In this document: positions 8,146-61,410 of the stretch, in pieces | Layout of the letters: the number at the start of each line of letters is the position of its first letter | Numbering within the stretch: position 1 is the stretch's first letter | Assembly: GCA_965649765.1 (NCBI GenBank) | Contig: OZ287756.1 | Location: 55,056,001 to 55,120,000, forward strand | Source of the DNA: Bispira polyomma | Lineage: Eukaryota | Direction of reading: 5' to 3' | Length of the DNA stretch: 64,000 bases | Program-made: the position numbers and the translations under genes | Notes under the pieces: model-generated | Told to the model about the DNA's origin: nothing | Databases searched by the model: none | The model's input: only the letters and a program-made list of their open reading frames with translations

Positions 8146-8467
8146 TTGACCTCTGGAGCAGCATAGTTATGAACATCAACAGCTATTTAGTGCAGGCAGT
8201 GTTTGGTGGTGATGAGGACAAAGTAGAGAGACTTATCAGTGAAGGTGCAGATGTAAACTGCCGAAATCTAAATGGAGACCCAATATTGGTACTAGCAGCA
8301 ATGTGTGCACATAGACACTTTGTGCCCTTGTCATATGTTGACTGGTCAGGTGAAATAATAGCCACAGAAAACAAGGAGAAGGTCCAAAGTTACATTGATA
8401 TATATAGCAATCTTCACAATGCCGGTGCTGATACTACAGCTGTGGACCATGATGGAAATAATGCAAG
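8146..8467 (+). CDS. Ankyrin-repeat gene, first recognisable coding exon (ATG at 8169)
   Basis: Acceptor TATTTTAG|8146 and donor AAG|GTAAGG after 8467 (phase 2). The peptide LVQAVFGGDEDKVERLISEGADVNCRNLNGDPILVLAA...LHNAGADTTAVDHDGNNA forms two ankyrin repeats with an insertion in the second. The frame is also open upstream of the ATG, so the start codon is not certain. Confidence 0.85.
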
Positions 8468-11997: not shown

Positions 11998-12214
11998 TGC
12001 ATAGCACGACCCAATAGGGGTCTGCTACTTCAGTTCAACCAAAGGAAAATGTATTACTACTTTAAGCCCTAGGGGCAAATTCGACAACTGTAGCATGATT
12101 CATCCAACCGTGAACTGGCCAGCCAATTAGGGGTCTTCCCTCCCAAATTCTGCATTCCTGTCCTAATATCTTCCATTTTGGAAAAGGATTCAGCAGTATA
12201 CACACGTACATTTT
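11998..12214 (+). repeat. Ngaro split direct repeat A1 (217 bp)
   Basis: Matches 17837-18035 except for an 18-bp segment absent from A2. Confidence 0.95.
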
Positions 12215-12339
12215 ATACAGCCAAGTTTATGAAGGCTCTGCTGAATCCAATTGCTTTTAGTATTTTAGTTTTTTATTCTATTGTTTGTTTTTAATATACT
12301 CTACTTTTTATGTGTTTGTGATATATATATTGTGGTAAA

Positions 12340-13593
12340 ATGGGGAGGACGTCTGAAAGGAAATTAAGACACACTAAGAAGACCCCAGCTACTGAAGGCA
12401 GTAAGGCAACAAAGAAAGGTACAGCAAAGAAAAGCAAATTGGGTAAGAATACTCGTATTGATGACAGTATCATAACTAACTCCAGTAGCCTCTTTGATCA
12501 AGCTGAGGCCGACCACGTGTCTCCATCTACCCGATCTCGGCTTACGAACCCTACCGGATCATCACACCAGGCCAATGAAATGCTAACCATACTAAGGCGG
12601 CTTGAGGAATCTAACGCGCTACTCACCCATAGGTTGGATCGAGTAGAAGCTAGAGACTCGACTGCTCAGTCAGCATCTCCTTGCCTAAATCCCACACGTT
12701 CCGCTCACCAGGTCGCGTTGGGTAACGACATCACGGCTCAGCCACACCTCTCAGCTCCAGGTTCCATGACGAATCCTGGTCACTCGTATCCACAGGCACC
12801 GCTGTCGATCAGTACCACGGCTCAGCCACACACGTCAACAGCCAGTTCACTTAACCGGGTCGACTACACCACTGATGCAATCGTTCCCAAAGCAGACATC
12901 CTGAAGACGTTGCCAGACATACAGGCAAGGGTCAACGAGAGGCTAGCCGAGTACAACCTCCAGGCCCAGGCCGTATTTACCCAAGGTAAGGCTGCTCTCA
13001 GACAGAAGTCGGGGAGATTTAATACTACAGACATACCGAACAGCAACCCGAAGACTAGGTGGGCAAACGAGGGGTGGACGGGTACTTCTTCGCGTAAACG
13101 ACCACCTTATGATGACTTGTCGCTTCCTCAGTGGGCATCTGGCCAGTTGGCCAATGCTCTCCAGGTCACGGACCCTCTGGTCTCGAGAGAAATTATACAG
13201 CAGGTCGTTCTATCCCTCAGGGACGCCGCGTCACTACCATGGGAGGTCGTCCGAACGGCCTGGGCGTTAAACATGACCGAGATTGAAGAAGGTAGACTGT
13301 CCTGGGGGGACACAACGCAGTGGGCCCTCAACAGGCTCAGTGCGTCACAGCTAGCTATGGTGAATTCTAAAACCACCAATGCTTCATCTACTCACGTCGG
13401 ATCAACAGCCAAGGTTATTTGCAAACTGTATAACTCCGGAAAGTGTTCGCATAAAGCAGATCACAGCCAGTATAAGCATGTGTGTTGGCACTGTGCTACC
13501 GTGCTTCACAAAGACGTATACCACCCAGAATTTAAGTGTTATAAGTCCAACTCAGCTAAACAGGCAGAATCAGGCTCTTCTTCTACCCACTAG
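12340..13593 (+). CDS. gag: Ngaro Gag-like ORF1
   Basis: 417-aa ORF directly after A1, with a basic N-terminus and a C-terminal Cys/His knuckle CKLYNSGKC...HVCWHC...H...C typical of DIRS/Ngaro ORF1. Confidence 0.88.
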   Translation: MGRTSERKLRHTKKTPATEGSKATKKGTAKKSKLGKNTRIDDSIITNSSSLFDQAEADHVSPSTRSRLTNPTGSSHQANEMLTILRRLEESNALLTHRLDRVEARDSTAQSASPCLNPTRSAHQVALGNDITAQPHLSAPGSMTNPGHSYPQAPLSISTTAQPHTSTASSLNRVDYTTDAIVPKADILKTLPDIQARVNERLAEYNLQAQAVFTQGKAALRQKSGRFNTTDIPNSNPKTRWANEGWTGTSSRKRPPYDDLSLPQWASGQLANALQVTDPLVSREIIQQVVLSLRDAASLPWEVVRTAWALNMTEIEEGRLSWGDTTQWALNRLSASQLAMVNSKTTNASSTHVGSTAKVICKLYNSGKCSHKADHSQYKHVCWHCATVLHKDVYHPEFKCYKSNSAKQAESGSSSTH

Positions 13594-13713
13594 GACATTG
13601 ACCAACTACCAGGACTAGGGCCATCTTGTCATAACAGTGAAAGTAAGAATAAGTTAGAAGTATATGTAAAACAGAATTATGAAGACCAACACATAACTAA
13701 AGCAGATAAGCAT

Positions 13714-16641
13714 ATGGTTTCATTGTTAAATAAGATGGAAAGTAATAATTCGTATATTTTTTCAAACAAACCTGAAAATGTTAATGTGAATGTATTGTCA
13801 CATGAAAGTGAAAATGTAAAAAATGTACACACTGTTAAACCGGAAATGTGTAAACCTAGCTTGTCAATCAGTACTGACAAAAAGAGCATTGATGATAGCC
13901 ATATTGCAGTTAAAAATTATAATGTCATTAGATTGCCTAACAAGTTTGGAAAGATAAAAAATTCATGCACTGCTAAAACGGCAATGTGTGATCCTAGCTT
14001 AACAGTTAGTATCGACAAGAAGGTTAATAATAGTGAACCTATTGGGGTCAAGAAATGGAATGTTCAGCAATATATCAGGGCCAGTGTACTGGACTCGAGT
14101 ACCAGTACTAGAATGTACAGAGATGACAGTTGTGGTCCATTCACCAAATTTGGGGGCTTTTCTAAAAATAAAGGTGATATTAAGATAAATGGTCTAGATA
14201 ATTCACACAGCGAAGTCCCTGTATTTTGGGGAAACAGAAATATTGGTGAACATTTAGAAAGAGAGAATAAAAGAAATTTTACAGTTAATGCTGATTTATG
14301 TAATGCCAGCAGTGTTAATGCCAGGTATGGTACCCCAAATGAGACAAAAGTAAAAGTTACCATCTCTACTACTAATTGGTTGTTTTGCATGCCTCACATT
14401 ACACAAGGAATGCCTGTGGTTTTTGTGCAGTCTGAGCTGCCACATGTTTCTGGTTTTTACACCTCATGGGATGAGGATTTTGGGACAAATTTCTACAGAT
14501 GTAAGAACCCACCAACTGGGGTAATGTCAGTGACCAGCATAGTCACAACTCAAATAGCTTTGGCTAATTTTAGGGATGATTTTCAAAACAGCAACAAGGT
14601 TGTAACAGTTACTGATGATGACAAATGTAAAGCTAAGGATGCTTGGCATGATTTTCAAAAAGAAATGTATTGCAAAAACAATTTCAAAAAAGGTTATACA
14701 GAATATGTAACAAATATCATTGACGAAATGTTGTTAGACATAAATGTAAATACAACATGTGTTGTCAGTAATGACAGACCAATGGAGGTTCAAACCTGCC
14801 ATAAAGGTAAAGTAGCGTCGTGCGATCTCTTCTTCCAAACTTTTGGACATTTCTCACAAACTACCACAAGTGCCACCATAGTGGATAAGGATATTAATTT
14901 CCCCAACAAAACTAAGGGTTTCTTGGCAAGCTCAGAAACCAAGTTTAGTTTTATAGGACCTGACAGGGCCCCCATACACATTACTTCAATTAAGGAAATG
15001 TCTGAAATAGCACAAACCATTAGGGATACGGGATGTCCCAATTATAAGGGAGCAAGGATCCCCCTGGTATCAGGTCTTAACACCAAAGCATGGGAGGAAG
15101 TCCTTTCAAATTACCCAGATGAACTTTTACTACAATATATCAAGTTTGGTTTTCCCCTCTCACTTACTTGTCCAAAGGATTTAAAGGTCAAGGATACCAC
15201 CAATCACCACTCTGCACTTGAATTTAAGGACCACATAAGGCAATATTTAGAAAAAGAGAAACAGTGTGGGGCCATGTTAGGACCTAGTTTACACATTAAG
15301 GATGAATTATTTCACTGTTCTCCACTGCTCACCAGACCTAAGGACAATTCCAAAAGGCGTGTAATTTTAAACTTGTCTCACCCCAGTGGGGAATCACTTA
15401 ATGACAATGTCAATAGGAAACAATTCGATGGAGTGGACTTCACCTTAAAATTTCCCACAATAGACGATATAGTAGAACAGATTCGTAAAACACACACTCC
15501 ACGTATCTTTAAACTGGACGTCGCGCGCGCTTTTAGAAATTTGAGGGTGGACCCAGTCGATGCCATGAAATTAGGAATCAAATTTGACGACCATAAGTAC
15601 GTTGATCCGGCGGTTGCGTTCGGCTGGGTCCACGGCTCGGCTGCTTTTCAGCGTTGCTCGGATGTTATAGCACACACCATGGAGAAGCACAACCATAAGA
15701 TCTTCTGTTATATCGACGATTATGTAGGCGTTTCTCCAGACTCGGAAGCAGAAGAAGCTTTTAACCAATTATATGAACTGGTTACCAAACTTGGTTTTCC
15801 GTTAAACCCAGAAAAAATTTCAAAACCAAGTTCAAAAGTCACCTGTCTTGGCATAGATATCGACATTCAGGCAGGCACTATAAGTATTACTCCCGAAAAA
15901 ATACAGGAAACATATAACCTCTGTTTAGAAATAGTTAACAAAGTTTGGATATCTAGAACTAAATTTCAATCAATATTGGGAAAATTGCTTTACATCCATA
16001 AATGTGTAAAGCCTGCTCGAATGTTTATAAACAGACTTCTTATGGCGTTTCGGAATAACAGTCAAGCTAAACGATTTAAAATTTCGCATGACATGAAGGC
16101 TGACTTATTATGGTTCGTACAATTTCTACCACGCTATAATGGTATTACGTTCATCGATCCGGTAATTGCTAAGCATAAGGATGAGGTTTTTATTGATGCA
16201 TGCCTCACTGGCCTAGGGGCCATCTACACCAATGAGGTTTTCGCTACCCCATTATACAACATCTATAATAGGGCTTTATCTATCGTGCATATCGAAATGC
16301 TTAACATTCTATTAGCTTTAAGGGTCTGGGGTGAGCAGTGGAGTCATAGACGTATAATCATGAATTGTGACAACATGTCCGTTGTCCTGGTAGTTAGGTC
16401 CAATAAGACAAAAGACGATTTTCTTGCTTTATGTTTAAGGAATATCTGGCTAATCTCGGCTGTACATGATATTACAATCGAGATTCAGCACATTAAAGGT
16501 AAAGACAATGTAATTGCTGACCTCCTTTCAAGACTTTTTTCTGAGCAACCCCCCCATAAGGGACAGTTGGAAATATTAAGGGATTCCTGTAAGTGGCACA
16601 CCATTCCACTCCAGTACTTTAACCTAGACTTAAATATATGA
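13714..16641 (+). CDS. pol: Ngaro Pol: reverse transcriptase + RNase H
   Basis: RT motifs RRVILNLS, KLDVARAFR, FGWVHGS and YIDD. RNase H motifs FIDAC, HIEMLN, CDNMSVV and HIKGKDNVIADLLSR. The frame is open back to 13594. Confidence 0.96.
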   Translation: MVSLLNKMESNNSYIFSNKPENVNVNVLSHESENVKNVHTVKPEMCKPSLSISTDKKSIDDSHIAVKNYNVIRLPNKFGKIKNSCTAKTAMCDPSLTVSIDKKVNNSEPIGVKKWNVQQYIRASVLDSSTSTRMYRDDSCGPFTKFGGFSKNKGDIKINGLDNSHSEVPVFWGNRNIGEHLERENKRNFTVNADLCNASSVNARYGTPNETKVKVTISTTNWLFCMPHITQGMPVVFVQSELPHVSGFYTSWDEDFGTNFYRCKNPPTGVMSVTSIVTTQIALANFRDDFQNSNKVVTVTDDDKCKAKDAWHDFQKEMYCKNNFKKGYTEYVTNIIDEMLLDINVNTTCVVSNDRPMEVQTCHKGKVASCDLFFQTFGHFSQTTTSATIVDKDINFPNKTKGFLASSETKFSFIGPDRAPIHITSIKEMSEIAQTIRDTGCPNYKGARIPLVSGLNTKAWEEVLSNYPDELLLQYIKFGFPLSLTCPKDLKVKDTTNHHSALEFKDHIRQYLEKEKQCGAMLGPSLHIKDELFHCSPLLTRPKDNSKRRVILNLSHPSGESLNDNVNRKQFDGVDFTLKFPTIDDIVEQIRKTHTPRIFKLDVARAFRNLRVDPVDAMKLGIKFDDHKYVDPAVAFGWVHGSAAFQRCSDVIAHTMEKHNHKIFCYIDDYVGVSPDSEAEEAFNQLYELVTKLGFPLNPEKISKPSSKVTCLGIDIDIQAGTISITPEKIQETYNLCLEIVNKVWISRTKFQSILGKLLYIHKCVKPARMFINRLLMAFRNNSQAKRFKISHDMKADLLWFVQFLPRYNGITFIDPVIAKHKDEVFIDACLTGLGAIYTNEVFATPLYNIYNRALSIVHIEMLNILLALRVWGEQWSHRRIIMNCDNMSVVLVVRSNKTKDDFLALCLRNIWLISAVHDITIEIQHIKGKDNVIADLLSRLFSEQPPHKGQLEILRDSCKWHTIPLQYFNLDLNI

Positions 16642-17639
16642 TTTCAGGATCAAACCACATCACACAAAGATTCACAGACTCAGCATGGCAGAGGATTGAC
16701 TGTGCTTTGCGTCCAAAGACTACACAGACTTACAATACCCAGTTTAGAACCTTCATCTCATTTACTTGCTATGCTGGAATAGAAGAAATTACCACACACT
16801 CATTGATTGCATTTCTAGAATACTTGGTACAAACAGGGGCGTCACCCAACATGGTTAATAACCATCTTGCAGCCATTAAACATATGGCCAAGAAGTTGTA
16901 CTGGGATACAAAAATTTTTGGAAACAATACAGTGTCTATGTTTACTAGAAGCTTGACACATACATCACCATTTAGACCTTCACCTAAAGGAATTTTCCAC
17001 ATTGAACACTTTTCAACACATTGATTACTGATCTCCAAAGCTTGTGATATTTTAAGAGACCCACCTCTATATAGGGCCATTTTCATGCTAGCTTTCTTTG
17101 GATTCTTGAGAATATCCAATATAGTCCCTCATTCCAGATCCAAATTTGATCCAACTCGTCACTTTCTAAGGAAAGATATAATCTTTGGCCACCCAGGTGC
17201 ACACTTGATCTTGAAGTGGGCAAAGAATTTACAAATTAGATCACAGTTTCACATTATACAGATACCCTTACTGGACAATGTTTTACTATGTCCAGTCAAG
17301 GCCATACAGACATTATTGAAATCTAGACCTCTGTCACCTGATGCCCCACTCTTCGTCAGTAGTACTTACCCACACTATCCAATTGTAGAAACACATGTGC
17401 GTTCTGCACTAGCTTCAATACTTACACATGTGGGAATTCCCACCAAATCACATAGTTTCCACACATTTAGAAGATCAGGGGCAACATATGCCTTTAATAA
17501 TAACGTGTCACTTCAAAACATCATGGCGCACGGCCTCTGGAGGTCATCTGCAGTCTGGTCATATTTGCATCAGAATTCTCAAGCAACTTCTGCTGTCCCT
17601 CTCACTTTCGCCTCCTCTCTACCTAAACTTCCTTCCTAG
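16638..17639 (+). pseudogene. Ngaro tyrosine recombinase with one in-frame TGA (17022-17024)
   Basis: ORFs 16638-17024 and 17085-17639 share a frame. Catalytic motifs GFLRISN (R), HTFRRSGA (HxxR), HGLWRS and WSYL (Y) are present. Confidence 0.93.
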
Positions 17640-17646
17640 TTTGGCT

Positions 17647-17836
17647 TGGGTGATTTTAAAATTGCCTTGTATTTTAATAATTTATACCTATTTTACACCT
17701 ACCTGTATATAGATTTACTAACATGTACAGAATTTAAATAAATTCCTCAAACCATAGTTTCACTGTCTTCTGCTATACTTACCAGACTATCTTTCCACTA
17801 CAACTTACCTTCTTTCCATTATACCAAGTAGAACTG
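17647..17836 (+). repeat. Ngaro split direct repeat B1 (190 bp)
   Basis: Matches 18712-18901 with one mismatch seen. Confidence 0.95.
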
Positions 17837-18035
17837 TGCATAGCACGACCCAATAGGGGTCTGCTACTTCAGTTCAACCAAAGGAAAATGTATTACTACT
17901 TTAAGCCCTAGGGGCATGATTCATCCAACCGTGAACTGGCCAGCCAATTAGGGGTCTTCCCTCCCAAATTCTGCATTCCTGTCCTAATATCTTCCATTTT
18001 GGAAAAGGATTCAGCAGTATACACACGTACATTTT
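17837..18035 (+). repeat. Ngaro split direct repeat A2 (199 bp)
   Basis: Copy of A1, directly abutting B1. Confidence 0.95.
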
Positions 18036-18711
18036 CCACCCACCTCCCCTTAACCACACCATAAGTTAATGTTCATTGTTCATTTCTTAGCTATGGCCAC
18101 TTTTGGTACTAAGCACATACTATGTTAAGAAGATCTCTGGTTGCGGACCCAAAAGGGCCCTGCTGAAAATCTTTGTAAGATAGGAAATCACTTAAATTTG
18201 GTTGGATTTGTGGGAGTTTTTGAACTCGGAACTGTGTGGTGTTAGGTCCTTCCTCATAACCTACCCTCTGGTGTGGGCTACCAGGGGGGCAATGCTCTGT
18301 GAGGTAGGACGTCTCACTGCTAAGCGAGTCGGTGCTGTAAGTTCCGGGTTCCCAAAAACTCCAATTAAGGCTGCTAGCGCAGGCATAATACGGCTTATAA
18401 GTCCGGATTAAATAGGAAATTTACTAGTTAACGATTAAATATTGGTATGATTTAAAATGTTGAATGTAATGTCATTGGGCATAATTGTATTGAATAGTAT
18501 TGGTATGATGTAATGTCATTTGGTATAATTGTATTGAATAGTGTTGGATCGACGTTGGCCTTAGGGGCTGATTGTTATAAAGGTGTACTGTTGTATGCTA
18601 GGCAAATGCTTAGTCTTCAGACGTTGGTTTTCCCAGCTTGCTGCTTAATGCTTGTGAGGTTTTATCCTCTGTATTATTTACTACCTTGCTTTTGCTTGTG
18701 TTGTCATGTAA

Positions 18712-18901
18712 TGGGTGATTTTAAAATTACCTTGTATTTTAATAATTTATACCTATTTTACACCTACCTGTATATAGATTTACTAACATGTACAGAATTT
18801 AAATAAATTCCTCAAACCATAGTTTCACTGTCTTCTGCTATACTTACCAGACTATCTTTCCACTACAACTTACCTTCTTTCCATTATACCAAGTAGAACT
18901 G
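18712..18901 (+). repeat. Ngaro split direct repeat B2 (190 bp)
   Basis: Copy of B1; it defines the 3' end of the element. Confidence 0.95.
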
Positions 18902-45975: not shown

Positions 45976-46782
45976 CCTAGAAATGGCGGGAGCTAATAGA
46001 TCTAAACATGTATAGATACATGACATTTAATAACATGTCCAAAACGCATGTAGGTACATGCCATACAGCAACTTGTCCAAAATTTATATAGGTACATCGC
46101 GATAGCAAGATGTCCAAAACAGCTATATGTACATGGCGAGAGCAACATGTCCAAAACACAAATAGGTACATGGCATACAACAACATGTCCAAAATTTATA
46201 TAGGTACATGGCATACATCAACATGTCCAATGCACATATAGGTACATGGTGAGAGCAACATGTTCAAAACAGATATTAGTACATGGCGAGAGCAACATGC
46301 CTAAAACACATAGTCGTACATGGCGAGACTAACATGTCCAAAACACATACAGTTGCATGTCGAGAGCAACATGTTCAAAGCACATATTGGTACATGGCAA
46401 GAGTAACATGTCCAAAACACATACAGGTGCATGTCGAGAGCAACATGTTCAAAGCACATATCAGTACATGGCGAGAGCAACATGTCTAAAACACATATAG
46501 GTACATAGTGAGAACAACATACCTAAAACACATATAGGTACATGGCGAGAGCAACAAGTCCAAACACTCAGGTACATTGCTTACAGCCACATGTACCAAA
46601 CACATATAGATACATGGTGAGTGCAATATGTACAAAAGACATAAAGCTACATGGCAAGAGCAACATGTACAAAATACATATAGGTACATGGCGAGAGCAA
46701 CATGTACAAAACACATATAGATACATGACATACAGCAACATGACTAAACACATATATCTACATGACGAGAGCAACATGACTA
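45976..46782 (+). repeat. 37-bp minisatellite array
   Basis: About 21 units of GTACATGGCGAGAGCAACATGTCCAAAACACATATAG. An inverted homolog lies at 60762-61409. Confidence 0.95.
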
Positions 46783-48186
46783 TGAAGGATTTTGAGATTT
46801 TTCAATGTTAACACACCAGTGAGTATAGTTTTTTGCCCAGCCATAATTTTACTCAGGAGTTGGCAGTTATGACTTATCTCTTGATAAAAAGACTTATATA
46901 TTGGATTTGAGACACTCGCAGAGGTTTTCAAACATGTTAGAAAACCTCTGTGAGTGAGTGCGTATCGGCTGATAAGTTGGGCCCCCTCCAGAGTTATCTT
47001 CCAGAGTTTATATATTCTACATATGCATAGCAAACAATTACTATAACATAATTTACAATTACTATAACATAAGTCACTACAAAATAACATTACAAACATT
47101 ATTCACAGATGATTAACAAATACAAGGACAATGGCAAAAAGCAACACCATTCTAAATTATCACTTATTATACACTCTGAGTTGTCTTTTCCTTGTAACAG
47201 GGGCGTATTTTTGATGAAAAGACTTAACTTTTCCTTTCAATGACTTATCTTTTGTGTATCTCTTATCTCTTCCAAAAACAATTTGGTCTGTGACATCCTT
47301 TTCACTGGTAATAATGGGGAACCATGTGAAGTGAAAATGAGATTTGCAACTCAAGGTGCCAATAATGGCCCTATGTTGATATTTCAGTGCTCAAATATTT
47401 TTTAATAGTGGTAGGAAATGAATGATGATTTTCCACTACTGGGGTTTAAATAGAACCACCAGGCTCTATGGCTAAGGTGAAGCCTAACTGTATGTAACCG
47501 GTTAGGACTGTTAGCAACCGTTTGTCATGATATTGAGACAATTGATAATTCCATTTTAGGACACAAGGTTTATTAACACTAACATTATGTTTGGGTGCTA
47601 AACCTGTATTCCTATCAAACAAAATTTCACCGTGTTTAAGTTCTTGCTCAGAATCACTTGGGCACACTAATATACTGTAAAATTATCACCTATTTAAGGT
47701 TATTATATTGTGCATCGCAAGGTTATTATATATGAGCATCGCAAACATTAACTATGGCCCACAGACTGCTTTGACACTAAGGATACATGAGTTCCTGCGG
47801 AATGCGAGACAAAAATTAATTTTTAGAACAAGTCTGTTGATCCTGTTGAAGACGGCAGCCAACATTGGCCTATTAGAGACTTATCATTTTAGGGTTTTCA
47901 TCACTCCGCACGTTCGTAAATGATGAAACCACATAGAAATTTAGAAATTCCCACGACCATAACGACCCTGGAATCTATCAATGAGTCGACTCTTGGTCTG
48001 GCCGACCTACTGGATAGAGCATGTTCGACAAGTGATGCAGTAGATGAGATTACTGCTTTATAATCATTTTTATTAAGAGCTAATGATGGTGCCTGTAGTG
48101 TTTATACATGGACAGTATCGACACCATTGGTTGATGAATGGGTTTATGTGTGCTTATGTGTACTCAACCTTGGACCTTAGGTTTCA

Positions 48187-48790
48187 CCAATGCCCTTGTG
48201 ATTAGCCGCCTCGACTACTGCAACTCTCTCTTGTACAGAGCAAACAAGTCACACATTAAAAAGCTTCACTCCATTTAAAAGTACCTATGTAGGGTCATTT
48301 TTCGCTTGGGTTGTCGCACAGACGTCACTCCTTACCTCAAAAAATTACACTGGCTGCCCATTACCTCTTGCCTTTTGTTCAAGATTCACGTTACTACTTT
48401 TAGCGCTGTAGTCACTCAAAAGCCCCCCTACCTTGCCTCCCTTCTTTCCTTCAGTAACCACAAGAGAGGCAACTGACTCTCCGTCACTTCCGTCAGACCA
48501 ATCAGAAAGGCGGGATTCAGAGCGTTCTCCACTGCAGTTCCACTTTTATGGAACAGTCTCCCAGTCGACCTCAGATCAGTCGACACACTTATCAGTTTTA
48601 GGAAAAAGCTTAAAACCTATCTTTTTAATCTTGCCTACCCACCTTAGCTTCCCTCGTGCACGCTCCAACTTCCTTCCTTACGACTTTGCAATGTCGATGA
48701 ACTTAATAATTCGACCAATGATTCTGCTGCTGTGCTTTAGAAGATGCCTAGCATCAATAAAGCGCATTAAAAATTTATAATATTAATAAT
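48187..48790 (+). mobile_element. 5'-truncated L2 LINE
   Basis: Reverse complement of about 61411-62020 (ORF2 end FRKKLKTYLFNLAYPP, 3' UTR, TAA-rich tail). Confidence 0.92.
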
Positions 48791-49045
48791 AAATGGTGGA
48801 TATTCTAGTTTGGCTTGTACTAGAATATTCCTGAGATTTTTGCAACCTTAACTTATAAGTTACCTAGACACCAAGCACTTAGCCATTGAGTGACAAATTG
48901 CTCTTATCTCACCTAGTCACTACACACCACTGGCACGGCTAGTAGAACTCTCAGCCAGTTTTTGGTGGTTTTTCCTCATACCAAGAAAGTAAGAGTATCA
49001 CCACTAATGTGCCACAACAGCACAAGCTTCAAAACCCACACGTGT

Positions 49046-49068
49046 CTGATGAGCCTCTTCGGTGAAAC
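49046..49068 (+). ncRNA. Degraded hammerhead-ribozyme core-like motif
   Basis: CTGATGA-GCC-TCTTC-GGT-GAAAC: the conserved core boxes around a 3-bp stem II. Confidence 0.35.
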
Positions 49069-52000
49069 CGTGCCCACTACTACCCTTTTAATCCACCCCA
49101 GATTCGGACTATTCTGTGACATGACAGACAAGTAGAGTGTTATGCATGATGTCACAACTGTCACCTGTTATGACATAGTATCACCTAGCAACCTTGCCTT
49201 ACCTCTCCAGGTGACAAAGGTTTACCTTTAAAAGCTTCAATTTCATTGGTTCAGGAGCTGAAACCCCTAGGTAACCTATCCCATGACTCATTTCAAGTCA
49301 CATTATCACGGTCACGCACATAGCACTAATTGTGTATCGGAGTTGTTGCAAAATTATTGGCAAGTTTTCCGCTTATGTGAGGTGTGGCATTAGATGTCTA
49401 TGTGACGTTATAGCACCCATTCTTGCATCTCCAATTACCTTGACCCATTTCTAGTGGCAATCATCTCCTCCATCTGGGATTCCTAAGGATGTAGCTGAGT
49501 TCGTATTTGAAAAGGTTTCAGTGTTCCAGAAATGGGAACACAGTGGTGAAGTTTACATCTCTCTGTCCTGCATCATACTTGGGATTCTAAGCCGCCAATT
49601 TCAAACTATCCCCAGAGATCTCCCTGTTTTGCAGTCTTACCTCTTGCTGGTGCGCACTTTAATTTAGTACCATCTGTCAATATCTGGCAACTTTAAATGG
49701 GCAAGGTAGTCTTGCCTTTGACCTTTCCAGCAGTGATTAAAAAGAGGCTTACTCTCATTCAAAACTGACACATTGTCGTCTCATAAGAGATCTTGTTGGT
49801 TGCAGACTTGTTCCAGTGTCTACTACTTTCTGATGTACGGCCATGCTTCTTCTCTATGGATTAAGTGGCAAATATACCTATTACAGACTTACTCATTATT
49901 TTTCAGGTACCCTATGTACTTTTCTTAAACTCTGACTTTTATTCTAGCAGCTTACTTACACAACTCTGCACAACTCATTATACATAAATAGATTTTTTCT
50001 AGCTCTCTGTTGGTGTACACAACTGTGGATCCTGTTTTGGATCTGTCATTCCCTGATATATGCAAGTTCTGTATATATAATTGATGTGACGGAAGTAGTT
50101 CATTGCAGTGCTTTTTGAAGTTCTACCAACACTAGAGCCATGATACACATAACTGTTAATTACATTTGAATCTTGCTCAATGTCAAACTGGACTATCAAT
50201 GGCAGTTTTTAGTAGTTTGTGTCATATCTCTAATCCTATTCCTTGTCATACCATTAATCTTGATGTGATATCGCTGTTTGGTCAACAAACGTACTGGTAA
50301 GGTCTGAATCATGTCAATCTGTTTCAATGTTGATTACAACTCTAAAAGGGTTATTTGTAATGGTTATTCTGCATACTATCTTTACTATTGGTTTTAGAGC
50401 ATTTAATTGTATTGTAAGTGTGTATAGGAACCAGACTCAGGCAATGTACTACACCAACAATATTTCACCTATGACCTTGGGTTGAATGTTAAACTCGGGT
50501 TATAAAGGGCAATTTTTAGGAGTATCATATCTCAAGATTTATTATGAATGCTATTACATACTATGATATCTCAATAGGACTAAACAAATTACAGTTAAAG
50601 TTCTTTATAATACAGTTATATTTGAAAGTCACTTATAGAAACCTGAAATGGTCATTTTTTATGTTTTTGAGCCATTTATTTTATGAATGTAGTATGAGCG
50701 TATTGGAAACAAAGATTAGGCAATGAAATGTACTGGCCATAGTTGGCCTATGTCCTCAGATTATTGTCAAACATGGGTTACAAAGGTCAAATTTCAATAT
50801 TTGTGTCTTTCCTTGACTGACATTTGATATGTCATTCTTGAAAGCAATGAACATATATCATTAAATCTAATTGCACTGTGACCATATTTGACATCTAACA
50901 TTGCACACAAGTGCTGCCATGCAGTTACATTTGCTATAATTTTTTGCAATATATGAAATGAATGTTTGAAATTGTATTTCAAAAATGTGTCAAAATGTCT
51001 GTAAATCCCTACACTCGCTATTTAATATTAGATTCAGATCATTTTAATGCAGTGATCAGATATGGTTCACAAACTTAGGTTAAGGGTGCCATAAGTCATA
51101 ATTCTTTATTTATTATGCTTTATGTCCATTTTTTCGAATTAATTTATCCAATATACCCCTTATGCTGCCTTCTCTTTACTATAAATTGGCGCAGTTGAAG
51201 ATTGCAATCAATGTAAACATGGCTGGCGGTTAAAAAGTTTAATTATTGGTTTATATATAGAGAGAAACATAAATACAAGACAACATAATAGTAACACAAG
51301 CATATGTTGAGATGGGCTATAGTACAACTTAGGAGTCTATGTTTGGCAGTCTATCTTAAGATGGGTCAGCCAAACTTGAGATTTTATATACAGAAACATA
51401 ATATAAAGGAATATGAAAAAAAGTAATTCAAATTATTTTTTATTAATAACAATCAGTGACTTTCGCTTGTCTATTTAAACTCTCTGCAGAATTTATATAG
51501 CCACATAGGATGACTGTTCAATTGATGTAGTGCTGGCAGTTAAGATTGCCTAACATCAACTTATCCTGCAAATATATAGGGTTGCTATATAGACAGACAC
51601 TAGTTTATGAAAGGCTACAGAAATGGAGGTTCTCTGTGGAAAAAAAAGGTTCCCACAGCTGCATGTGTGATTGAAGTAATTTTAACTTTTAACACTGAGT
51701 TACTAGTATATAAGGTGTTTGTGTCAGCAAACCTTGAAATGTAATTAGTCAATTTCACATGATTCCAATTTGGCCAGTAACACACCGGTAGCATCAAGTT
51801 ATTAACAACTGTGCCATTTTATGTTCAGGTGGGTAATTATGACTTGGTCATTGATATAAGTTGTCTAAAACATTATTTTATCTGAGTCCCCACCTACTGA
51901 TTTTACTGAATCACGAATCTGGAAACTATTATTAAAACCGACTATGGCAGAGGAATGATGTATATGCTTACCAGCACTAAAGCCAGTTAAACTACTTAAT

Positions 52001-52990
52001 CACACATCAAATTATATCAAACAAATCAACTTATAGCTGTGGCTGCCTATTTAATTTCATTCATTAATTGGTTGACATGATTACCACCACTCAAGCCAGT
52101 TAAGCTACTTAATAACACATCCAGTTAGACAAAAAAATCAACATACAGCTGTGGCTTCCTATTTAATTTCAATTATGAAAGGATGAACATGGTTACTATG
52201 ACTAAATTCAGTTAAGCTATTTTATATGTAGTCCTTATAAACAAATCAAGTAATACATGGTTCCCATTGTATCAATGTATCATCAATTAAATCGATGGAA
52301 AGGCACAGTTAAAGGATAGGCTTACATCAATTTAGGCAGTTTTTAATAGAGATTTTCAATCAATCAAATGTAAATTCATCATCAAAACAAGCAATATATT
52401 TTAAGGAATAAGGTTATGAGCTTTCAATAGTGGATTTTAAACCTTAGTTATTATGAAAAAAAGCATAGTGAGAGGATAAGCTTACTTATTTGGGACAATT
52501 TAAATAAAGTATACATTATAAATGTCGGAAAACAGGCAATGACTAGAACATTTAATAATGAACTTTAAACCTGTCATTTCATTAAAAAAAATAACATAAA
52601 ATCATCATTGTGTGAATTAATTATTATTAAAACATTTACGATCTCTAGTTTTCAATTTTTATCCAATCTCAAGTTTGGCCAGTTTTCCTCAGACAATTCT
52701 GTGACAAGTGTGGATAAAACACATAGTTCATTTAATCCTTCAATACAAATAATATTAGGTGATATTTTGTAAGCATTTTCTCTGACTGTCTGCACTACTT
52801 ATACAATATCACAAACTGTGATTATTTAAATCTAAGTTTATTCACCGCAAAATTCTGTATGCATAATTTCATCTGGTTTTCAATATAAGTAATTGTTTTA
52901 TTACAGATATCCAAGATTACATACAGAGTTTTCTAAATTTGAATAAAATTGTGTATATGTTTTTAAAAGGTTATATGTACCTAATTACAG

Positions 52991-53257
52991 ATCATGCTTA
53001 TCATTAGTTCTTCACAGAGCTGTCAGCTGTGCACTGAAGTCCACAGTGGAGACGTTACTCTCAATTCCTGGAGTGGATGTTAATGTTAAAGATCAGGAGG
53101 GTAGAACACCCCTGATGGTGATTGGTATGAGCGTGGTGGATTGGGTTGACATGGGAGACCTTGATGACCTTGATCACAATTTATGTGGTATAATTAGACT
53201 GTTACTTGAACACCAGGCTGACATGAATGTAAAAGACAATACAGGAACCGGTGTCAG
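52991..53257 (+). CDS. Ankyrin array exon 1 (267 nt, loop type A: SVVDWVDMGDLDDLDHNL)
   Basis: TTACAG|A acceptor, CAG|GTAACA donor, phase 2-2, open frame SCLSLVLHRAVS...GRTPL...QADMNVKDNTG. Confidence 0.88.
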
Positions 53258-53806
53258 GTAACAAAGAATGTTTTACTTTATACTCTGTGGTTTATCAATG
53301 AGTATCAACCAAATAGTTGACACAGATATATTATGCCAGCTCTGAGCTACTTTATACTCTAGAATGTAGTAAACATAATTGTCTGTTCGAGCAGCTATAT
53401 TACTTATACCTTATACTTAACATATAATATTGTCTAATGTCCCTAACATAATGCAATTTAAAAATGAAGTGAATTGTTTGAAACACAAAATAATGTAAAC
53501 CTAGCCGGAATGTAGCACTTGTCTCAAAAAAAATCTTAAATTTGTTACGTACGTATGATAATTAGTTAGATACAGACATTAAAATATCACATAACAGGTA
53601 AATGTTAATGCTATTAATACAATATCACAAACTGTGATTATTTAAATCTAAGTTTATTCACCGCAAAATTCTGTATGCATAATTTCATCTGGTTTTCAAT
53701 ATAAGTAATTGTTTTATTACAGATATCCAAGATTACATACAGAGTTTTCTAAATTTGAATAAAATTGTGTATATGTTTTTAAAAGGTTATATGTACCTAA
53801 TTACAG

Positions 53807-53903
53807 ATCATGCTTATCATTAGTTCTTCACAGAGCTGTCAGCTGTGCACTGAAGTCCACAGTGGAGACGTTACTCTCAATTCCTGGAGTGGATGTTAAC
53901 GTT
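53807..53903 (+). pseudogene. Partial array exon (5' third, no donor)
   Basis: 190-bp duplication that runs into intron sequence and a stop (VLLQIFKITYRVF*). Confidence 0.85.
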
Positions 53904-53996
53904 TTATTACAGATATTCAAGATTACATACAGAGTTTTCTAAATTTGAATAAAATTGTGTATATGTTTTTAAAAGGTTATATGTACCTAATTACAG

Positions 53997-54093
53997 ATCA
54001 TGCTTATCATTAGTTCTTCACAGAGCTGTCAGCTGTGCACTGAAGTCCACAGTGGAGACGTTACTCTCAATTCCTGGAGTGGATGTTAACGTT
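53997..54093 (+). pseudogene. Partial array exon (5' third, no donor)
   Basis: Second 190-bp duplication with the same breakpoint. Confidence 0.85.
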
Positions 54094-54186
54094 TTATTAC
54101 AGATATTCAAGATTACATACAGAGTTTTCTAAATTTGAATAAAATTGTGTATATGTTTTTAAAAGGTTATATGTACCTAATTACAG

Positions 54187-54480
54187 ATCATGCTTATCAT
54201 TAGTTCTTCACAGAGCTGTCAGCTGTGCACTGAAGTCCACAGTGGAGACGTTACTCTCAATTGCTGGAGTGGATGTTAACGTTAAAGATCAGGAGGGTAG
54301 AACACCCCTGATGGTGATTGGTATGAGTGTGGAGGATTGGATTCACAGGGGAGACCTTGATGACCTTGATGACCTTGATGACTTTAATGACCTTGATCAC
54401 AATTTATGTGGTATAATTAGACTGTTACTTGAACACCAGGCTGACATGAATGTAAAAGACAATACAGGAACCGGTGTCAG
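54187..54480 (+). CDS. Ankyrin array exon 2 (294 nt, loop type B: SVEDWIHRGDLDDLDDLDDFNDLDHNL)
   Basis: Same splice sites, open frame. Confidence 0.85.
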
Positions 54481-55030
54481 GTAACAAAGAATGTTTTAAT
54501 TTATACTCTGTGGTTTATCAATGAGTATCAACCAAATAGTTGACACAGATATATTATGCCAGCTCTGAGCTACTTTATACTCTAGAATGTAGTAAACATA
54601 ATTGTCTGTTCGAGCAGCTATATTACTTATACCTTATACTTAACATATAATATTGTCTAATGTCCCTAACATAATGCAATTTAAAAATGAAGTGAATTGT
54701 TTGAAACACAAAATAATGTAAACCTAGCCGGAATGTAGCACTTGTCTCAAAAAAAAATCTTAAATTTGTTACGTACGTATGATAATTAGTTAGATACAGA
54801 CATTAAAATATCACATAACAGGTAAATGTTAATGCTATTAATACAATATCACAAACTGTGATTATTTAAATCTAAGTTTATTCACCGCAAAATTCTTTAT
54901 GCATAATTTCATCTGGTTTTCAATATAAGTAATTGTTTTATTACAGATATCCAAGATTACATACAGAGTTTTCTAAATTTGAATAAAATTGTGTATATGT
55001 TTTTAAAAGGTTATATGTACCTAATTACAG

Positions 55031-55127
55031 ATCATGCTTATCATTAGTTCTTCACAGAGCTGTCAGCTGTGCACCTAAGTTCACAGTGGAGACGTTACTC
55101 TCAATTACTGGAGTGGATGTTAACGTT
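55031..55127 (+). pseudogene. Partial array exon (5' third, no donor)
   Basis: Third 190-bp duplication, carrying the private changes CCT AAG TTC. Confidence 0.85.
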
Positions 55128-55220
55128 TTATTACAGATATTCAAGATTACATACAGAGTTTTCTAAATTTGAATAAAATTGTGTATATGTTTTTAAAAGG
55201 TTATATGTACCTAATTACAG

Positions 55221-55505
55221 ATCATGCTTATCATTAGTTCTTCACAGAGCTGTCAGCTGTGCACTGAAGTCCACAGTGGAGACGTTACTCTCAATTGCTG
55301 GAGTGGATGTTAACGTTAAAGATCAGGAGGGTAGAACACCCCTGATGGTGATTGGTATGAGTGTGGAGGATTGGATTCACAGGGGAGACCTTGATGACCT
55401 TGATGTCTTTGATAACCTTGATCACAATTTATGTGGTATAATTAGACTGTTACTTGAACACCAGGCTGACATGAATGTAAAACACAATACAGGAACCGGT
55501 GTCAG
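55221..55505 (+). CDS. Ankyrin array exon 3 (285 nt, loop type B: SVEDWIHRGDLDDLDVFDNLDHNL)
   Basis: Same splice sites, open frame. Confidence 0.85.
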
Positions 55506-56054
55506 GTAACAAAGAATGTTTTAATTTATACTCTGTGGTTTATCAATGAGTATCAACCAAATAGTTGACACAGATATATTATGCCAGCTCTGAGCTACTT
55601 TATACTCTAGAATGTAGTAAACATAATTGTCTGTTCGAGCAGCTATATTACTTATACCTTATACTTAACATATAATATTGTCTAATGTCCCTAACATAAT
55701 GCAATTTAAAAATGAAGTGAATTGTTTGAAACACAAAATAATGTAAACCTAGCCGGAATATAGCACTTGTCTCAAAAAAAATCTTAAATTTGTTACGTAC
55801 GTATGATAATTAGTTAGATACAGACATTAAAATATCACATAACAGGTAAATGTTAATGCTATTAATACAATATCACAAACTGTGATTATTTAAATCTAAG
55901 TTTATTCACCGAAAAATTCTGTATGCATAATTTCATCTGGTTTTGAATATAAGTAATTGTTTTATTACAGATATCCAAGATTACATACAGAGTTTTCTAA
56001 ATTTGAATAAAATTGTGTATATGTTTTTAAAAGGTTATATGTACCTAATTACAG

Positions 56055-56312
56055 ATCATGCTTATCATTAGTTCTTCACAGAGCTGTCAGCTGTGCACTG
56101 AAGTCCACAGTGGAGACGTTACTCTCAATTACTGGAGTGGATGTTAACGTTAAAGATCAGAAGGGTAGAACACCGCTGATGGTGATTGGTATGAGTGTGA
56201 AGGATTGGCCTGACTGGAGAAGCTTTGATGACAGTTTGTGTGGTACAATTAGACTGTTACTTGAACACCAGGCTGACATGAATGTAAAAGACAATACAGG
56301 AACCGGTGTCAG
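56055..56312 (+). CDS. Ankyrin array exon 4 (258 nt, loop type C: SVKDWPDWRSFDDSL)
   Basis: Same splice sites, open frame. Confidence 0.88.
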
Positions 56313-56861
56313 GTAACAAAGAATGTTTTAATTTATACTCTGTGGTTTATCAATGAGTATCAACCAAATAGTTGACACAGATATATTATGCCAGCTCTGA
56401 GCTACTTTATACTCTAGAATGTAGTAAACATAATTGTCTGTTCGAGCAGCTATATTACTTATACCTTATACTTAACATATAATATTGTCTAATGTCCCTA
56501 ACATAATGCAATTTAAAAATGAAGTGAATTGTTTGAAACACAAAATAATGTAAACCTAGCCGGAATGTAGCACTTGTCTCAAAAAAAATCTTAAATTTGT
56601 TACGTACGTATGATAATTAGTTAGATACAGACATTAAAATATCACATAACAGGTAAATGTTAATGCTATTAATACAATATCACAAACTGTGATTATTTAA
56701 ATCTAAGTTTATTCACCGCAAAATTCTGTATGCATAATTTCATCTGGTTTTCAATATAAGTAATTGTTTTATTACAGATATCCAAGATTACATACAGAGT
56801 TTTCTAAATTTGAATAAAATTGTGTATATGCTTTTAAAAGGTTATATGTACCTAATTACAG

Positions 56862-57119
56862 ATCATGCTTATCATTAGTTCTTCACAGAGCTGTCAGCTC
56901 TGCACTGAAGTCCACAGTGGAGACGTTACTCTCAATTACTGGAGTGGATGTTAACGTTAAAGATCAGAAGGGTAGAACACCGCTGATGGTGATTGGTATG
57001 GGTGAGAAGGTTTGGCCTTACTGGAGAAGCTTTGATGACAGTTTGTGTGGTACAATTAGACTGTTACTTGAACACCAGGCTGACATGAATGTAAAAGACA
57101 ATACAGGAACCGGTGTCAG
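56862..57119 (+). CDS. Ankyrin array exon 5 (258 nt, loop type C: GEKVWPYWRSFDDSL)
   Basis: Same splice sites, open frame. Confidence 0.88.
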
Positions 57120-57668
57120 GTAACAAAGAATGTTTTAATTTATACTCTGTGGTTTATCAATGAGTATCAACCAAATAGTTGACACAGATATATTATGCCA
57201 GCTCTGAGCTACTTTATACTCTAGAATGTAGTAAACATAATTGTCTGTTCGAGCAGCTATATTACTTATACCTTATACTTAACATATAATATTGTCTAAT
57301 GTCCCTAACATAATGCAATTTAAAAATGAAGTGAATTGTTTGAAACACAAAATAATGTAAACCTAGCCGGAATGTAGCACTTGTCTCAAAAAAAATCTTA
57401 AATTTTTTACGTACGTATGATAATTAGTTAGATACAGACATTAAAATATCACATAACAGGTAAATGTTAATGCTATTAATACAATATCACAAACTGTGAT
57501 TATTTAAATCTAAGTTTATTCACCGAAAAATTCTGTATGCATAATTTCATCTGGTTTTGAATATAAGTAATTGTTTTATTACAGATATCCAAGATTACAT
57601 ACAGAGTTTTCTAAATTTGAATAAAATTGTGTATATGTTTTTAAAAGGTTATATGTACCTAATTACAG

Positions 57669-57935
57669 ATCATGCTTATCATTAGTTCTTCACAGAGCTG
57701 TCAGCTGTGCACTGAAGTCCACAGTGGAGACGTTACTCTCAATTACTGGAGTGGATGTTAATGTTAAAGATCAGGAGGGTAGAACACCCCTGATGGTGAT
57801 TGGTATGAGCGTGGTGGATTGGGTTGACATGGGAGACCTTGATGACCTTGATCACAATTTATGTGGTATAATTAGACTGTTACTTGAACACCAGGCTGAC
57901 ATGAATGTAAAACACAATACAGGAACCGGTGTCAG
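57669..57935 (+). CDS. Ankyrin array exon 6 (267 nt, loop type A)
   Basis: Same splice sites, open frame. Confidence 0.88.
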
Positions 57936-58484
57936 GTAACAAAGAATGTTTTACTTTATACTCTGTGGTTTATCAATGAGTATCAACCAAATAGTTGACA
58001 CAGATATATTATGCCAGCTCTGAGCTACTTTATACTCTAGAATGTAGTAAACATAATTGTCTGTTCGAGCAGCTATATTACTTATACCTTATACTTAACA
58101 TATAATATTGTCTAATGTCCCTAACATAATGCAATTTAAAAATGAAGTGAATTGTTTGAAACACAAAATAATGTAAACCTAGCCGGAATGTAGCACTTGT
58201 CTCAAAAAAAATCTTAAATTTGTTACGTACGTATGATAATTAGTTAGATACAGACATTAAAATATCACATAACAGGTAAATGTTAATGCTATTAATACAA
58301 TATCACAAACTGTGATTATTTAAATCTAAGTTTATTCACCGCAAAATTCTGTATGCATAATTTCATCTGGTTTTCAATATAAGTAATTGTTTTATTACAG
58401 ATATCCAAGATTACATACAGAGTTTTCTAAATTTGAATAAAATTGTGTATATGCTTTTAAAAGGTTATATGTACCTAATTACAG

Positions 58485-58742
58485 ATCATGCTTATCATTA
58501 GTTCTTCACAGAGCTGTCAGCTCTGCACTGAAGTCCACAGTGGAGACGTTACTCTCAATTACTGGAGTGGATGTTAACGTTAAAGATCAGAAGGGTAGAA
58601 CACCGCTGATGGTGATTGGTATGAGTGTGAAGGATTGGCCTTACTGGAGAAGCTTTGATGACAGTTTGTGTGGTACAATTAGACTGTTACTTGAACACCA
58701 GGCTGACATGAATGTAAAAGACAATACAGGAACCGGTGTCAG
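58485..58742 (+). CDS. Ankyrin array exon 7 (258 nt, loop type C: SVKDWPYWRSFDDSL)
   Basis: Same splice sites, open frame. Confidence 0.88.
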
Positions 58743-59291
58743 GTAACAAAGAATGTTTTAATTTATACTCTGTGGTTTATCAATGAGTATCAACCAAATA
58801 GTTGACACAGATATATTATGCCAGCTCTGAGCTACTTTATACTCTAGAATGTAGTAAACATAATTGTCTGTTCGAGCAGCTATATTACTTATACCTTATA
58901 CTTAACATATAATATTGTCTAATGTCCCTAACATAATGCAATTTAAAAATGAAGTGAATTGTTTGAAACACAAAATAATGTAAACCTAGCCGGAATGTAG
59001 CACTTGTCTCAAAAAAAATCTTAAATTTGTTACGTACGTATGATAATTAGTTAGATACAGACATTAAAATATCACATAACAGGTAAATGTTAATGCTATT
59101 AATACAATATCACAAACTGTGATTATTTAAATCTAAGTTTATTCACCGAAAAATTCTGTATGCATAATTTCATCTGGTTTTGAATATAAGTAATTGTTTT
59201 ATTACAGATATCCAAGATTACATACAGAGTTTTCTAAATTTGAATAAAATTGTGTATATGTTTTTAAAAGGTTATATGTACCTAATTACAG

Positions 59292-59558
59292 ATCATGCTT
59301 ATCATTAGTTCTTCACAGAGCTGTCAGCTGTGCACTGAAGTCCACAGTGGAGACGTTACTCTCAATTACTGGAGTGGATGTTAATGTTAAAGATCAGGAG
59401 GGTAGAACACCCCTGATGGTGATTGGTATGAGCGTGGTGGATTGGGTTGACATGGGAGACCTTGATGACCTTGATCACAATTTATGTGGTATAATTAGAC
59501 TGTTACTTGAACACCAGGCTGACATGAATGTAAAACACAATACAGGAACCGGTGTCAG
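59292..59558 (+). CDS. Ankyrin array exon 8 (267 nt, loop type A)
   Basis: Same splice sites, open frame; appears identical to exon 6. Confidence 0.88.
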
Positions 59559-59796
59559 GTAACAAAGAATGTTTTAATTTATACTCTGTGGTTTATCAAT
59601 GAGTATCAACCAAATAGTTGACACAGATATATTATGCCAGCTCTGAGCTACTTTATACTCTAGAATGTAGTAAACATAATTGTCTGTTCGAGCAGCTATA
59701 TTACTTATACCTTATAGTTAACATATAATATTGTCTAATGTCCCTAACATAATGCAATTTAAAAATGAAGTGAATTGTTTGAAACACAAAATAATG

Positions 59797-60490
59797 GCTA
59801 AACAGCTTAATGGATTTATATCCCAAGAAGGTATTGCGAATGTTACCCAATCTGCATACCGGAGATCCCACTCCACAGAGACCGCTCTACTCAAGATTCT
59901 AAATGATATAGCTATGTCTGTTGACATGGGAAAGGCAGTGCCCCTTACATTACTGGACCTCTCTGCAGATTTTGACATCAACAATCACTCCATTTTATAT
60001 GACTGTTTAACAGACTGGTTTGGAATTGATGGGACTGTATTGCTTTGGATCAAATCCTACCTCCTAGACTGTAAACAAAAAATCAAAATTGGTAGCAGTT
60101 TTTTCCTGAGGTCTTTTTGCTGCCCTTCGGTGTTCTCCAAGGTTCTGTCCTAGGTCCTCTGCTTTTTACCCTGTACACTACCCCCCTCAGTCAAGTCATT
60201 TCAAAGTTTAATTTTACCCATCACCTGTATGCTGATGACACACATATATACCTAGCACTGGACTCCAGGAACTTTGACTCAAGTATTGCCGAGCTCACTG
60301 ACTAAAATTAGTCCAGGAGTGGATGGATTGTGCAAAATTAAAGCTCAACCCAGATAAAACGGATTTCATTATTATAGGTAACAAACCCACCACAGAGTCA
60401 CTTACAGCAAAATTTGCTATTTCATTCCTCCAAAACAATATCACTCCGTCAGCAGAGGTAAAAAACCTGGGTGTCATCTTTGACTTGGAC
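59797..60490 (+). pseudogene. Internal RT fragment of an L2-like LINE, frameshifted
   Basis: [40 protein letters not shown] and LKLNPDKT are spread across three frames. Confidence 0.93.
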
Positions 60491-60761
60491 AGAAATGTAA
60501 CAATACTAAAGTTATAACTGTTAATTTGTATGCAGTTGCTTAAAATACAACTCCAAATATGTGTTTTGACATTTTTCCACTTTGGGACTGTGTCTTCTCA
60601 AATAATATTTTTTTAACTGCATTACAATGTTTTACTTTTAGCACTTATAAAATGTATGAATGTGCTGATATAGGTCAAAATATAACACAAAACAATCAGA
60701 AAAAGCTCCAAAAAATTAAAAATTCACAGTAAATTACATCATACAAACAACAGGCACAGAG

Positions 60762-61409
60762 TAGTCATGTTGCTCTCATCATGTAGATGTATGTGTTTTA
60801 GACATGTTGCTGTATATCATGTGTCTATGTGTGTTTTGTACATGTTGCACTCACTATGTATCTATATGTGTTGGGTACATGTGGCTGTAAGTAATGTACC
60901 TGAGTGTTTGGACTTGTTGCTCTTGCCATGTAGCTATATGTGTTTTAGACATGTTGCTCTCGCCATGTACTGATACGTGCTTCGAACATGTTGCTCTCAA
61001 CATGCACCTGTTTGTGTTTTGGACATGTTAATCTTGCCATGTACGTATATGTGTTTTAGGCATGTTGCTCTCGCCATGTACCAATATCTGTTATGGACAT
61101 GTTGCTTTCGCCATGTACCAATATCTATTTTGGACATGTTGCTCTCGCCATGTACCAATATCTGTTATGGACATGTTGCTCTCGCCATGTACCAATATCT
61201 GTTATGGACATGTTGCTCTCGCCATGTACCAATATCTGTTATGGACATGTTGCTCTCGCCATGTACCAATATCTGTTATGGACATGTTGCTCTCGCCATG
61301 TACCAATATCTGTTTTGGACATGTTGCTCTCGCCATGTACCAATATCTGTTTTGAACATGTTGCTCTCACCATGTACCAATATCTGTTTTGAACATGTTG
61401 CTCTCACCA
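60762..61409 (-). repeat. 37-bp minisatellite array, inverted relative to 45976-46782
   Basis: Period 37 (for example 61141 and 61178), with recently homogenised units at 61060-61409; interrupted by the L2 tail. Confidence 0.95.
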
Positions 61410-61410
61410 T

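Follow-up and report, generated by a model that had tools for sequence, protein, structure and literature searches.

Tandem ankyrin-pair exons with a hypervariable loop in a predicted gene of Bispira polyomma and its paralog

Gene A, its paralog and the first exon array

The window, a stretch of 64,000 nucleotides of Bispira polyomma (assembly GCA_965649765.1, contig OZ287756.1, positions 55,056,001 to 55,120,000, forward strand), contains the beginning of a predicted gene, here called gene A. Our hand-built model comprises 33 exons and 2,863 amino acids and runs ~77 kb beyond the window end. The likewise predicted paralog B (hand-built model, 27 exons, 2,360 amino acids) lies 290 kb upstream of gene A. 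Both models have GT-AG splice sites throughout and contain no internal stops. Gene A would encode ~25 two-repeat ankyrin modules, two of which are amplified into variable exon arrays, with copy numbers in A and B of 8 versus 1 in the first array and 4 versus 3 in the second, as counted in one assembly. The second exon of gene A had no Pfam match. Genome searches with three exons in the 1.04-Gb assembly returned only genes A and B, counts that are lower bounds. With a profile built from the array exons, similar modules were detected in two clusters spanning 660 kb, all of them on the plus strand, and no inverted exon copies were found in this region. A search for orthologs gave 14 generic ankyrin proteins and none at exon length.

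In 15 single-copy exon pairs of A and B, from which three dead relic exons were left out, 0 stops were present where ~17 would be expected, which rules against a pseudogene. The ratio of non-synonymous to synonymous change in these pairs is ~0.72, and gene A looks alive but loosely constrained throughout. It is unlikely that A and B are uncollapsed haplotypes: synonymous divergence amounts to 10% in the ankyrin exons and ~20% near the 3' end, and the exon sets differ.

Most of the introns of gene A around exon 2 up to the array (window 20576-47964) recur in paralog B, behind exon 3 of that gene (G000:C9:54805717-54832659). The shared block includes ~16 kb at 97% identity, and this intron copy suggests a recent exchange between the genes. 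Intron 1 carries a DIRS-like retroelement (window 11998-18901; reverse transcriptase by Pfam, recombinase-like frames by eye), of which a 99% identical copy is found in a different intron of paralog B. Dead ankyrin exon relics that have lost splice sites or acquired stops lie at G000:C9:55132242-55133466 and 54882754-54883050. A live exon of B at 54882364 resembles a fusion of parts from two adjacent A exons, as in a chimera, and one ankyrin-pair exon is found in paralog B only (G000:C9:54852017-54852232). Further repeats in the window are a perfect 185-bp inverted repeat with arms 379 bp apart (5055-5803) and a LINE-like duplicate of ~2.6 kb at 89% identity, 12 kb apart (36047-38579 and 47966-50661).

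The first array consists of eight tandem units of 807-816 bp, two of which are longer owing to 190-bp partial duplicates. In each unit, an intron of 549 bp is joined to a phase-2 exon 258-294 nt long, and the encoded loops fall into the classes K (exons 4, 5 and 7), V (exons 1, 6 and 8) and H (exons 2 and 3; Table 1). A shorter exon of 231 nt, starting at an inner acceptor, would leave the phase unchanged; it was rejected, as homologous exons begin at the upstream position. The array is flanked by 37-bp minisatellites in opposite orientation (window 46032-46778 and 60766-61410).

Table 1 Features of gene A and of the two exon arrays. Positions are those of the window unless given as G000:C9.
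Feature	Position	Strand	Remarks
Predicted first coding exon, gene A	8169-8467	+	ATG at 8169; long insert in the ankyrin pair; Ank_4 E 2e-5; conserved in paralog
Predicted second exon, gene A	27752-28003	+	divergent ankyrin pair, phase 2-2
Array exon 1	52991-53257	+	267 nt, V-class loop
190-bp tandem partial duplicates	53711-54283	+	acceptor and first 95 nt of exon, without donor; dead fragments at 53807 and 53997
Array exon 2	54187-54480	+	294 nt, H-class loop, expanded 9-bp acidic repeat
Dead partial exon copy	55031-55125	+	own 3 changes in 7 nt
Array exon 3	55221-55505	+	285 nt, H-class loop
Array exon 4	56055-56312	+	258 nt, K-class loop, two ankyrin repeats, AG/GT, phase 2-2
Hypervariable segment of exon 4	56194-56235	+	codons 47-60; in second repeat, between helices 1 and 2
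549-bp intron	56313-56861	+	near-identical across the units; 7 sites vary among 7 copies
Array exon 5	56862-57119	+	258 nt, K-class, AG/GT, phase 2-2; private changes at 57001, 57005, 57011
Array exon 6	57669-57935	+	267 nt, V-class
Array exon 7	58485-58742	+	258 nt, K-class; sister of exon 5 in 1,623-bp doublet duplication
Array exon 8	59292-59558	+	267 nt, V-class; protein identical to exon 6
Second ankyrin-pair exon array	G000:C9:55140845-55158761 (A, 4 copies) and 54889522-54901179 (B, 3 copies)		unit 5.3-6.5 kb

Each array exon codes for a pair of ankyrin repeats, the second of which carries an insert behind its helix 1 (Pfam Ank 32.1 bits against a curated cut-off of 21.1, E 1.2e-7). The predicted structure of the module contains helices at residues 2-12, 16-23, 40-43 and 54-70, with a pLDDT of 91.4 overall and of 69 for residues 51-60, and in a Foldseek search designed ankyrin proteins rank at the top, the first two with TM 0.73-0.76. 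According to this model, the array exons encode the ankyrin helix-turn-helix and hairpin fold. C13 and S47 occupy the equivalent position in adjacent repeats. From ankyrin geometry, the variable residues at the helix 1 end, the hairpin tip and the helix1-helix2 loop would line one edge of the binding face.

Divergence among the exon copies

The original prediction started from the neighbouring exons 4 and 5, between which it saw only amino-acid-changing differences. This was borne out: the exons differ at 5 positions in 258 nt, C13S (56093/56900, G>C), S47G (56194/57001, A>G), V48E (56198/57005, T>A), D50V (56204/57011, A>T) and D53Y (56212/57019, G>T), and none of the differences is synonymous. 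The four loop changes lie within 19 nt (seven codons, 21 nt), and the introns preceding the two exons differ at 4 of 549 sites, as had been stated. It had also been noted that the central tryptophan stays fixed, and Trp51 (TGG) is indeed invariant in 8/8 units and in the exon of the paralog. This fixation is unremarkable; 2 of the 14 loop codons are invariant, the chance that one named loop codon stays fixed given 19 changes is ~0.25 (calculated by hand), and Trp is absent at that site from most other modules of gene A.

Taken by itself, the pair makes no case for selection, because non-synonymous sites account for 185.7 of the 242.7 exon sites, and five non-synonymous changes out of five are thus expected a quarter of the time (P=0.26). 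The changes are clustered, with 4 of the 9 differences of the 807-bp unit inside 19 nt (P ~0.004, for a window picked after seeing the data). S13 and Y53 are found again in exon 7, and the paralog has Y53 too; therefore only three of the five changes, G47, E48 and V50, are private to exon 5.

These three changes are absent from all other units and from the rest of the genome and are known from the assembly alone, which could point to sequencing or assembly errors. We consider this highly improbable. The other two differences recur elsewhere, as described above, and the three are in-frame substitutions rather than indels. Moreover, a contig of 544 bases that matches the exon end and the intron without a difference occurs in 3/3 sequencing runs (of one study, possibly the source sample), and the pattern across the array is independent of exon 5. 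Aligned to window 52000-60500, the contigs of these runs leave exon 5 uncovered; since contigs drop variants, this has no bearing on its bases. The exon 5 loop has a single genomic occurrence at ≤1 mismatch. We rejected micro-conversion as its origin, as no donor exists in the genome at this threshold, and likewise templating from a short direct repeat ~20 nt downstream, which fits 2/3 changes and fails at one intervening base.

The remaining units show the same concentration of change. Between K and V/H units, divergence reaches 35% at exon nt 151-180, compared with 0-2% in the intron bins. The doublet of exons 5 and 6 differs from that of exons 7 and 8 at 4 of 1,622 bp (block ends trimmed by eye), and 3 of these differences are in the exon 5 loop. 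Four other units aligned with exon 4 have protein identities of 86-98% to it; the loops of exons 1, 6 and 8 are identical, array modules differ by 1-14 loop bases, and indels of a 9-bp repeat occur within the loop. In the four-gamete test 6 of 231 site pairs fail, all through one site. The exon 7 loop is 5 nt from the loop of the paralog but 11-14 nt from those of its array neighbours, whereas the introns of A and B differ at 32 of 332 aligned sites (~10%) and the array introns vary at 7 of 549. Because the exon 7 loop is closer to that of a paralog whose introns are ~10% apart, the loop classes appear to be either older than the surrounding introns or to have changed very fast.

Over all eight exons, non-synonymous changes in the loop (codons 47-60) number at least 18 for 33.6 sites, against 1 synonymous change for 6.7 sites; the framework has 6 non-synonymous changes in 151 sites and 3 synonymous in 51. 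Synonymous exon sites are more variable (4/58) than intron sites (7/549; P=0.015). The introns are no neutral yardstick, because they are homogenised and exon synonymous sites vary more.

Selection, targeted mutation or a tolerant loop

In the second array, the introns are near-identical even between A and B. The exons carry 25 non-synonymous and 7 synonymous changes in 222 nt, while the 90 nt upstream contain no variable site and ~650 nt downstream contain 16; columns further on were misaligned and were dropped. Codons 11-13, 15, 35, 37 and 45-48 are among those that vary. As in the first array, the variation falls at the helix 1 end, the hairpin tip and the loop. The second array has no indel, and between A and B its copies differ at 17 exon positions against 1 of 224 intron sites.

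The selection counts given here are minimum changes, come from no tree-based model and use loop limits set after data inspection. Tested singly, neither the first-array loop (18 non-synonymous versus 1 synonymous, P=0.15) nor the whole exons of the two arrays (P=0.17 and 0.47) reach significance. When binding-edge and loop codons of both arrays were pooled, with binding positions numbered as in designed ankyrin libraries and position 14 included, there were 33 non-synonymous changes in 91 sites and 2 synonymous changes in 20 sites. The corresponding ratio is 3.7, with P=0.033 when bases are counted and 0.060 when codon events are. If the transition bias of the introns is applied, the ratio becomes 4.9 (P=0.007, and 0.015 for codon events); the framework ratio is 0.6-0.8. 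With the position set given in PMC4308713, the pooled count is still 31 to 2, and the enrichment at binding positions outside the loop weakens from P=1.6e-4 for the first set to P=0.03 (0.14 for codon events).

The original prediction left the choice between positive selection and locally targeted mutation. Targeted mutation by a deaminase-like or repair-linked process, which would act on the loop irrespective of the protein effect, would account for the tight clustering of changes and for a cluster in a dead copy. However, the 16 transitions and 12 transversions of the array are near the 134:106 of the introns, four of the five changes between exons 4 and 5 are transversions without CpG or common context, synonymous changes at the pooled variable positions are rarer per site than non-synonymous ones (2 of 20 against 33 of 91), and three exons of the array share one loop. 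We therefore regard targeted mutation as very unlikely. Selection is the most likely reading, with moderate support from the whole array, the paralog and the second array (P 0.007-0.06) and none from the pair of exons 4 and 5.

The main rival, in our view rather unlikely though a good deal less so than targeted mutation, involves no positive selection. Here the variable segment would be a tolerant surface loop, in which old classes are kept by a local block of conversion through length differences and mismatches, with occasional clustered mutations such as the three in exon 5. The gene-wide ratio of ~0.72, the 9-bp repeat indels in the loop and the lack of significance in each array on its own agree with this, as does the greater variability of synonymous exon sites compared with introns; near a site under selection, gene conversion would likewise leave linked synonymous differences. 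Clustered changes do occur outside coding sequence. Recently duplicated intron and element DNA (29 kb) has 147 substitutions, which include 2 triplet clusters where 0.22 would be expected, a ~9-fold excess. The cluster in the dead exon fragment at 55031 could either descend from a variant that was once live or be a sign that clusters arise without selection. A tolerant loop does not sit well with the second array, where exons out-diverge introns between A and B without any indel, nor with a pooled ratio of 3.7-4.9 instead of 1, nor with the loops of 10 single-copy exon pairs, in which 17 non-synonymous changes stand against 1 synonymous change.

We propose that the arrays probably result from concerted evolution combined with diversifying selection on a ligand-binding edge. 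Unequal crossing-over would duplicate whole exon-intron units, a turnover that we infer; copied units stay in frame because both exon ends are in phase 2. Gene conversion would homogenise introns and framework, while selection, rather than drift, would retain amino-acid variants on the putative ligand-binding edge and so give rise to the divergence peak. A divergence peak under gene conversion was reportedly treated by Teshima and Innan in 2008. The spliced protein would then present several different putative binding modules in series. The weakest step, together with this serial arrangement, is that the modules might bind a protein partner that itself changes fast, as part of an immune or genetic conflict, which taken alone we hold to be possible but doubtful.

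Related systems and the C-terminus

Several known systems resemble the array in part. HNWD of Podospora and other NLRs with high internal conservation (HIC) are described as having near-identical repeats with few hypervariable positions and 80-100% identity within a gene (PMC13449251). Like HNWD, the locus has near-identical repeats with hypervariable positions, shows gain and loss of repeats and exchange between paralogs, and is proposed to evolve by unequal crossing-over (PMC13449251). It differs in that the repeats are ankyrin pairs of one exon each with a co-duplicated intron, that loop length also varies, that a NACHT or NB-ARC ATPase is absent from the gene model and that the host appears to be an animal. 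No NACHT or NB-ARC domain was found in the 33-exon model, for which the Pfam scan covered some exons, and because it has no ATPase domain gene A is not considered an NLR. The nearest NACHT domain belongs to a separate NACHT-LRR (NLR) gene 157 kb downstream of gene A (G000:C9:55353318-55357873). An open frame with tandem Kunitz-like cysteine motifs, recognised by eye, lies on the minus strand at G000:C9:55269625-55270179. Together with introns and LINE-like elements, this NLR gene and the Kunitz-like motifs point to an animal host.

The ROCO-LRR and NB-ARC-TPR genes of Ectocarpus (PMC3341825, PMC11378527) are also built from repeat modules exon by exon, with dead exon copies in introns and paralogs that differ in exon number; selection on the predicted binding face, described there, is probable here. 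The traits of this brown-algal type that are present here are one repeat module per symmetric phase 2-2 exon, dead fragments and relic exons. In contrast to these genes, each exon here encodes two ankyrin repeats instead of one LRR or TPR, there is no GTPase or NB-ARC, no inverted exon copies were found, and there are two genes instead of a large family. Alternative splicing of repeat exons also belongs to the brown-algal type, as do ROC-COR or NB-ARC domains with LRR or TPR repeats; such domains were not found in the model, whose repeats are ankyrin. By analogy, the array appears to work like the Podospora NLR repeats and the Ectocarpus receptors yet belongs to neither, as the model has no ATPase or GTPase domain.

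A narrow divergence peak within an exon, with homogenised introns on both sides, is likewise described for exon 5 of the primate red and green opsins (PMC3924837); here, the peak is found among eight exon copies in one gene and between two paralogs. Designed ankyrin repeat proteins have the same predicted fold, and the natural variation seen here coincides with the randomised library sites at the hairpin and the helix 1 end, whereas most of the variation is in the inserted helix1-helix2 loop, which is absent from the designed scaffold, and position 14 is variable here but fixed in the library (PMC4308713). Among the literature matches listed, there was no animal ankyrin exon array of this kind and no ankyrin-BEN fusion.

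Homogenised arrays that are hypervariable at the binding face mark arms-race proteins such as fungal NLR sensors and brown-algal receptors. If our reading is true, the gene pair would represent an exon-level ankyrin version of this design in an animal, outside the NLR architecture and with two independent arrays. Since the modules are small, confidently predicted to fold and only 1-14 loop bases apart, loop swaps could identify the partner and test for selection.

At the predicted C-terminus there are low-complexity exons and a Cys/His motif accompanied by a likely coiled coil, as well as a BEN-like segment that scores below threshold. The penultimate exon matches positions 2-34 of 76 of the BEN profile with 12.8 and 14.0 bits in the two paralogs, compared with a cut-off of 23.2. 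The third Atlas match of the segment (0.91) has BEN on 12% of its members, with low recognition, and the 4 matches of this exon in the relatives search include 2 of exon size. The exon is not among the matches listed in the genome-wide BEN search and has no PDB sequence match; its structure model is unusable (pLDDT 49), and the joined halves are not significantly similar to another BEN of the same genome (417 and 102 of 2000 shuffles). On this basis, a C-terminal BEN-like domain is only a lead. BEN domains bind DNA, according to PMC8887127, and if the BEN-like end is real, variable recognition would be coupled straight to DNA. We speculate, as a distinctly unlikely option, that the protein could be an animal nuclear sensor in which a recombining natural library of ankyrin modules is coupled to a DNA-binding domain of BEN type without an ATPase switch in between. 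Such a chain would unite a variable receptor with a transcription factor and be retuned by copying and converting exons, possibly also by exon skipping. A separate BEN domain above the Pfam cut-off lies on the minus strand at L071:3059-3373 (G000:C4) and is the only one among the matches listed genome-wide.
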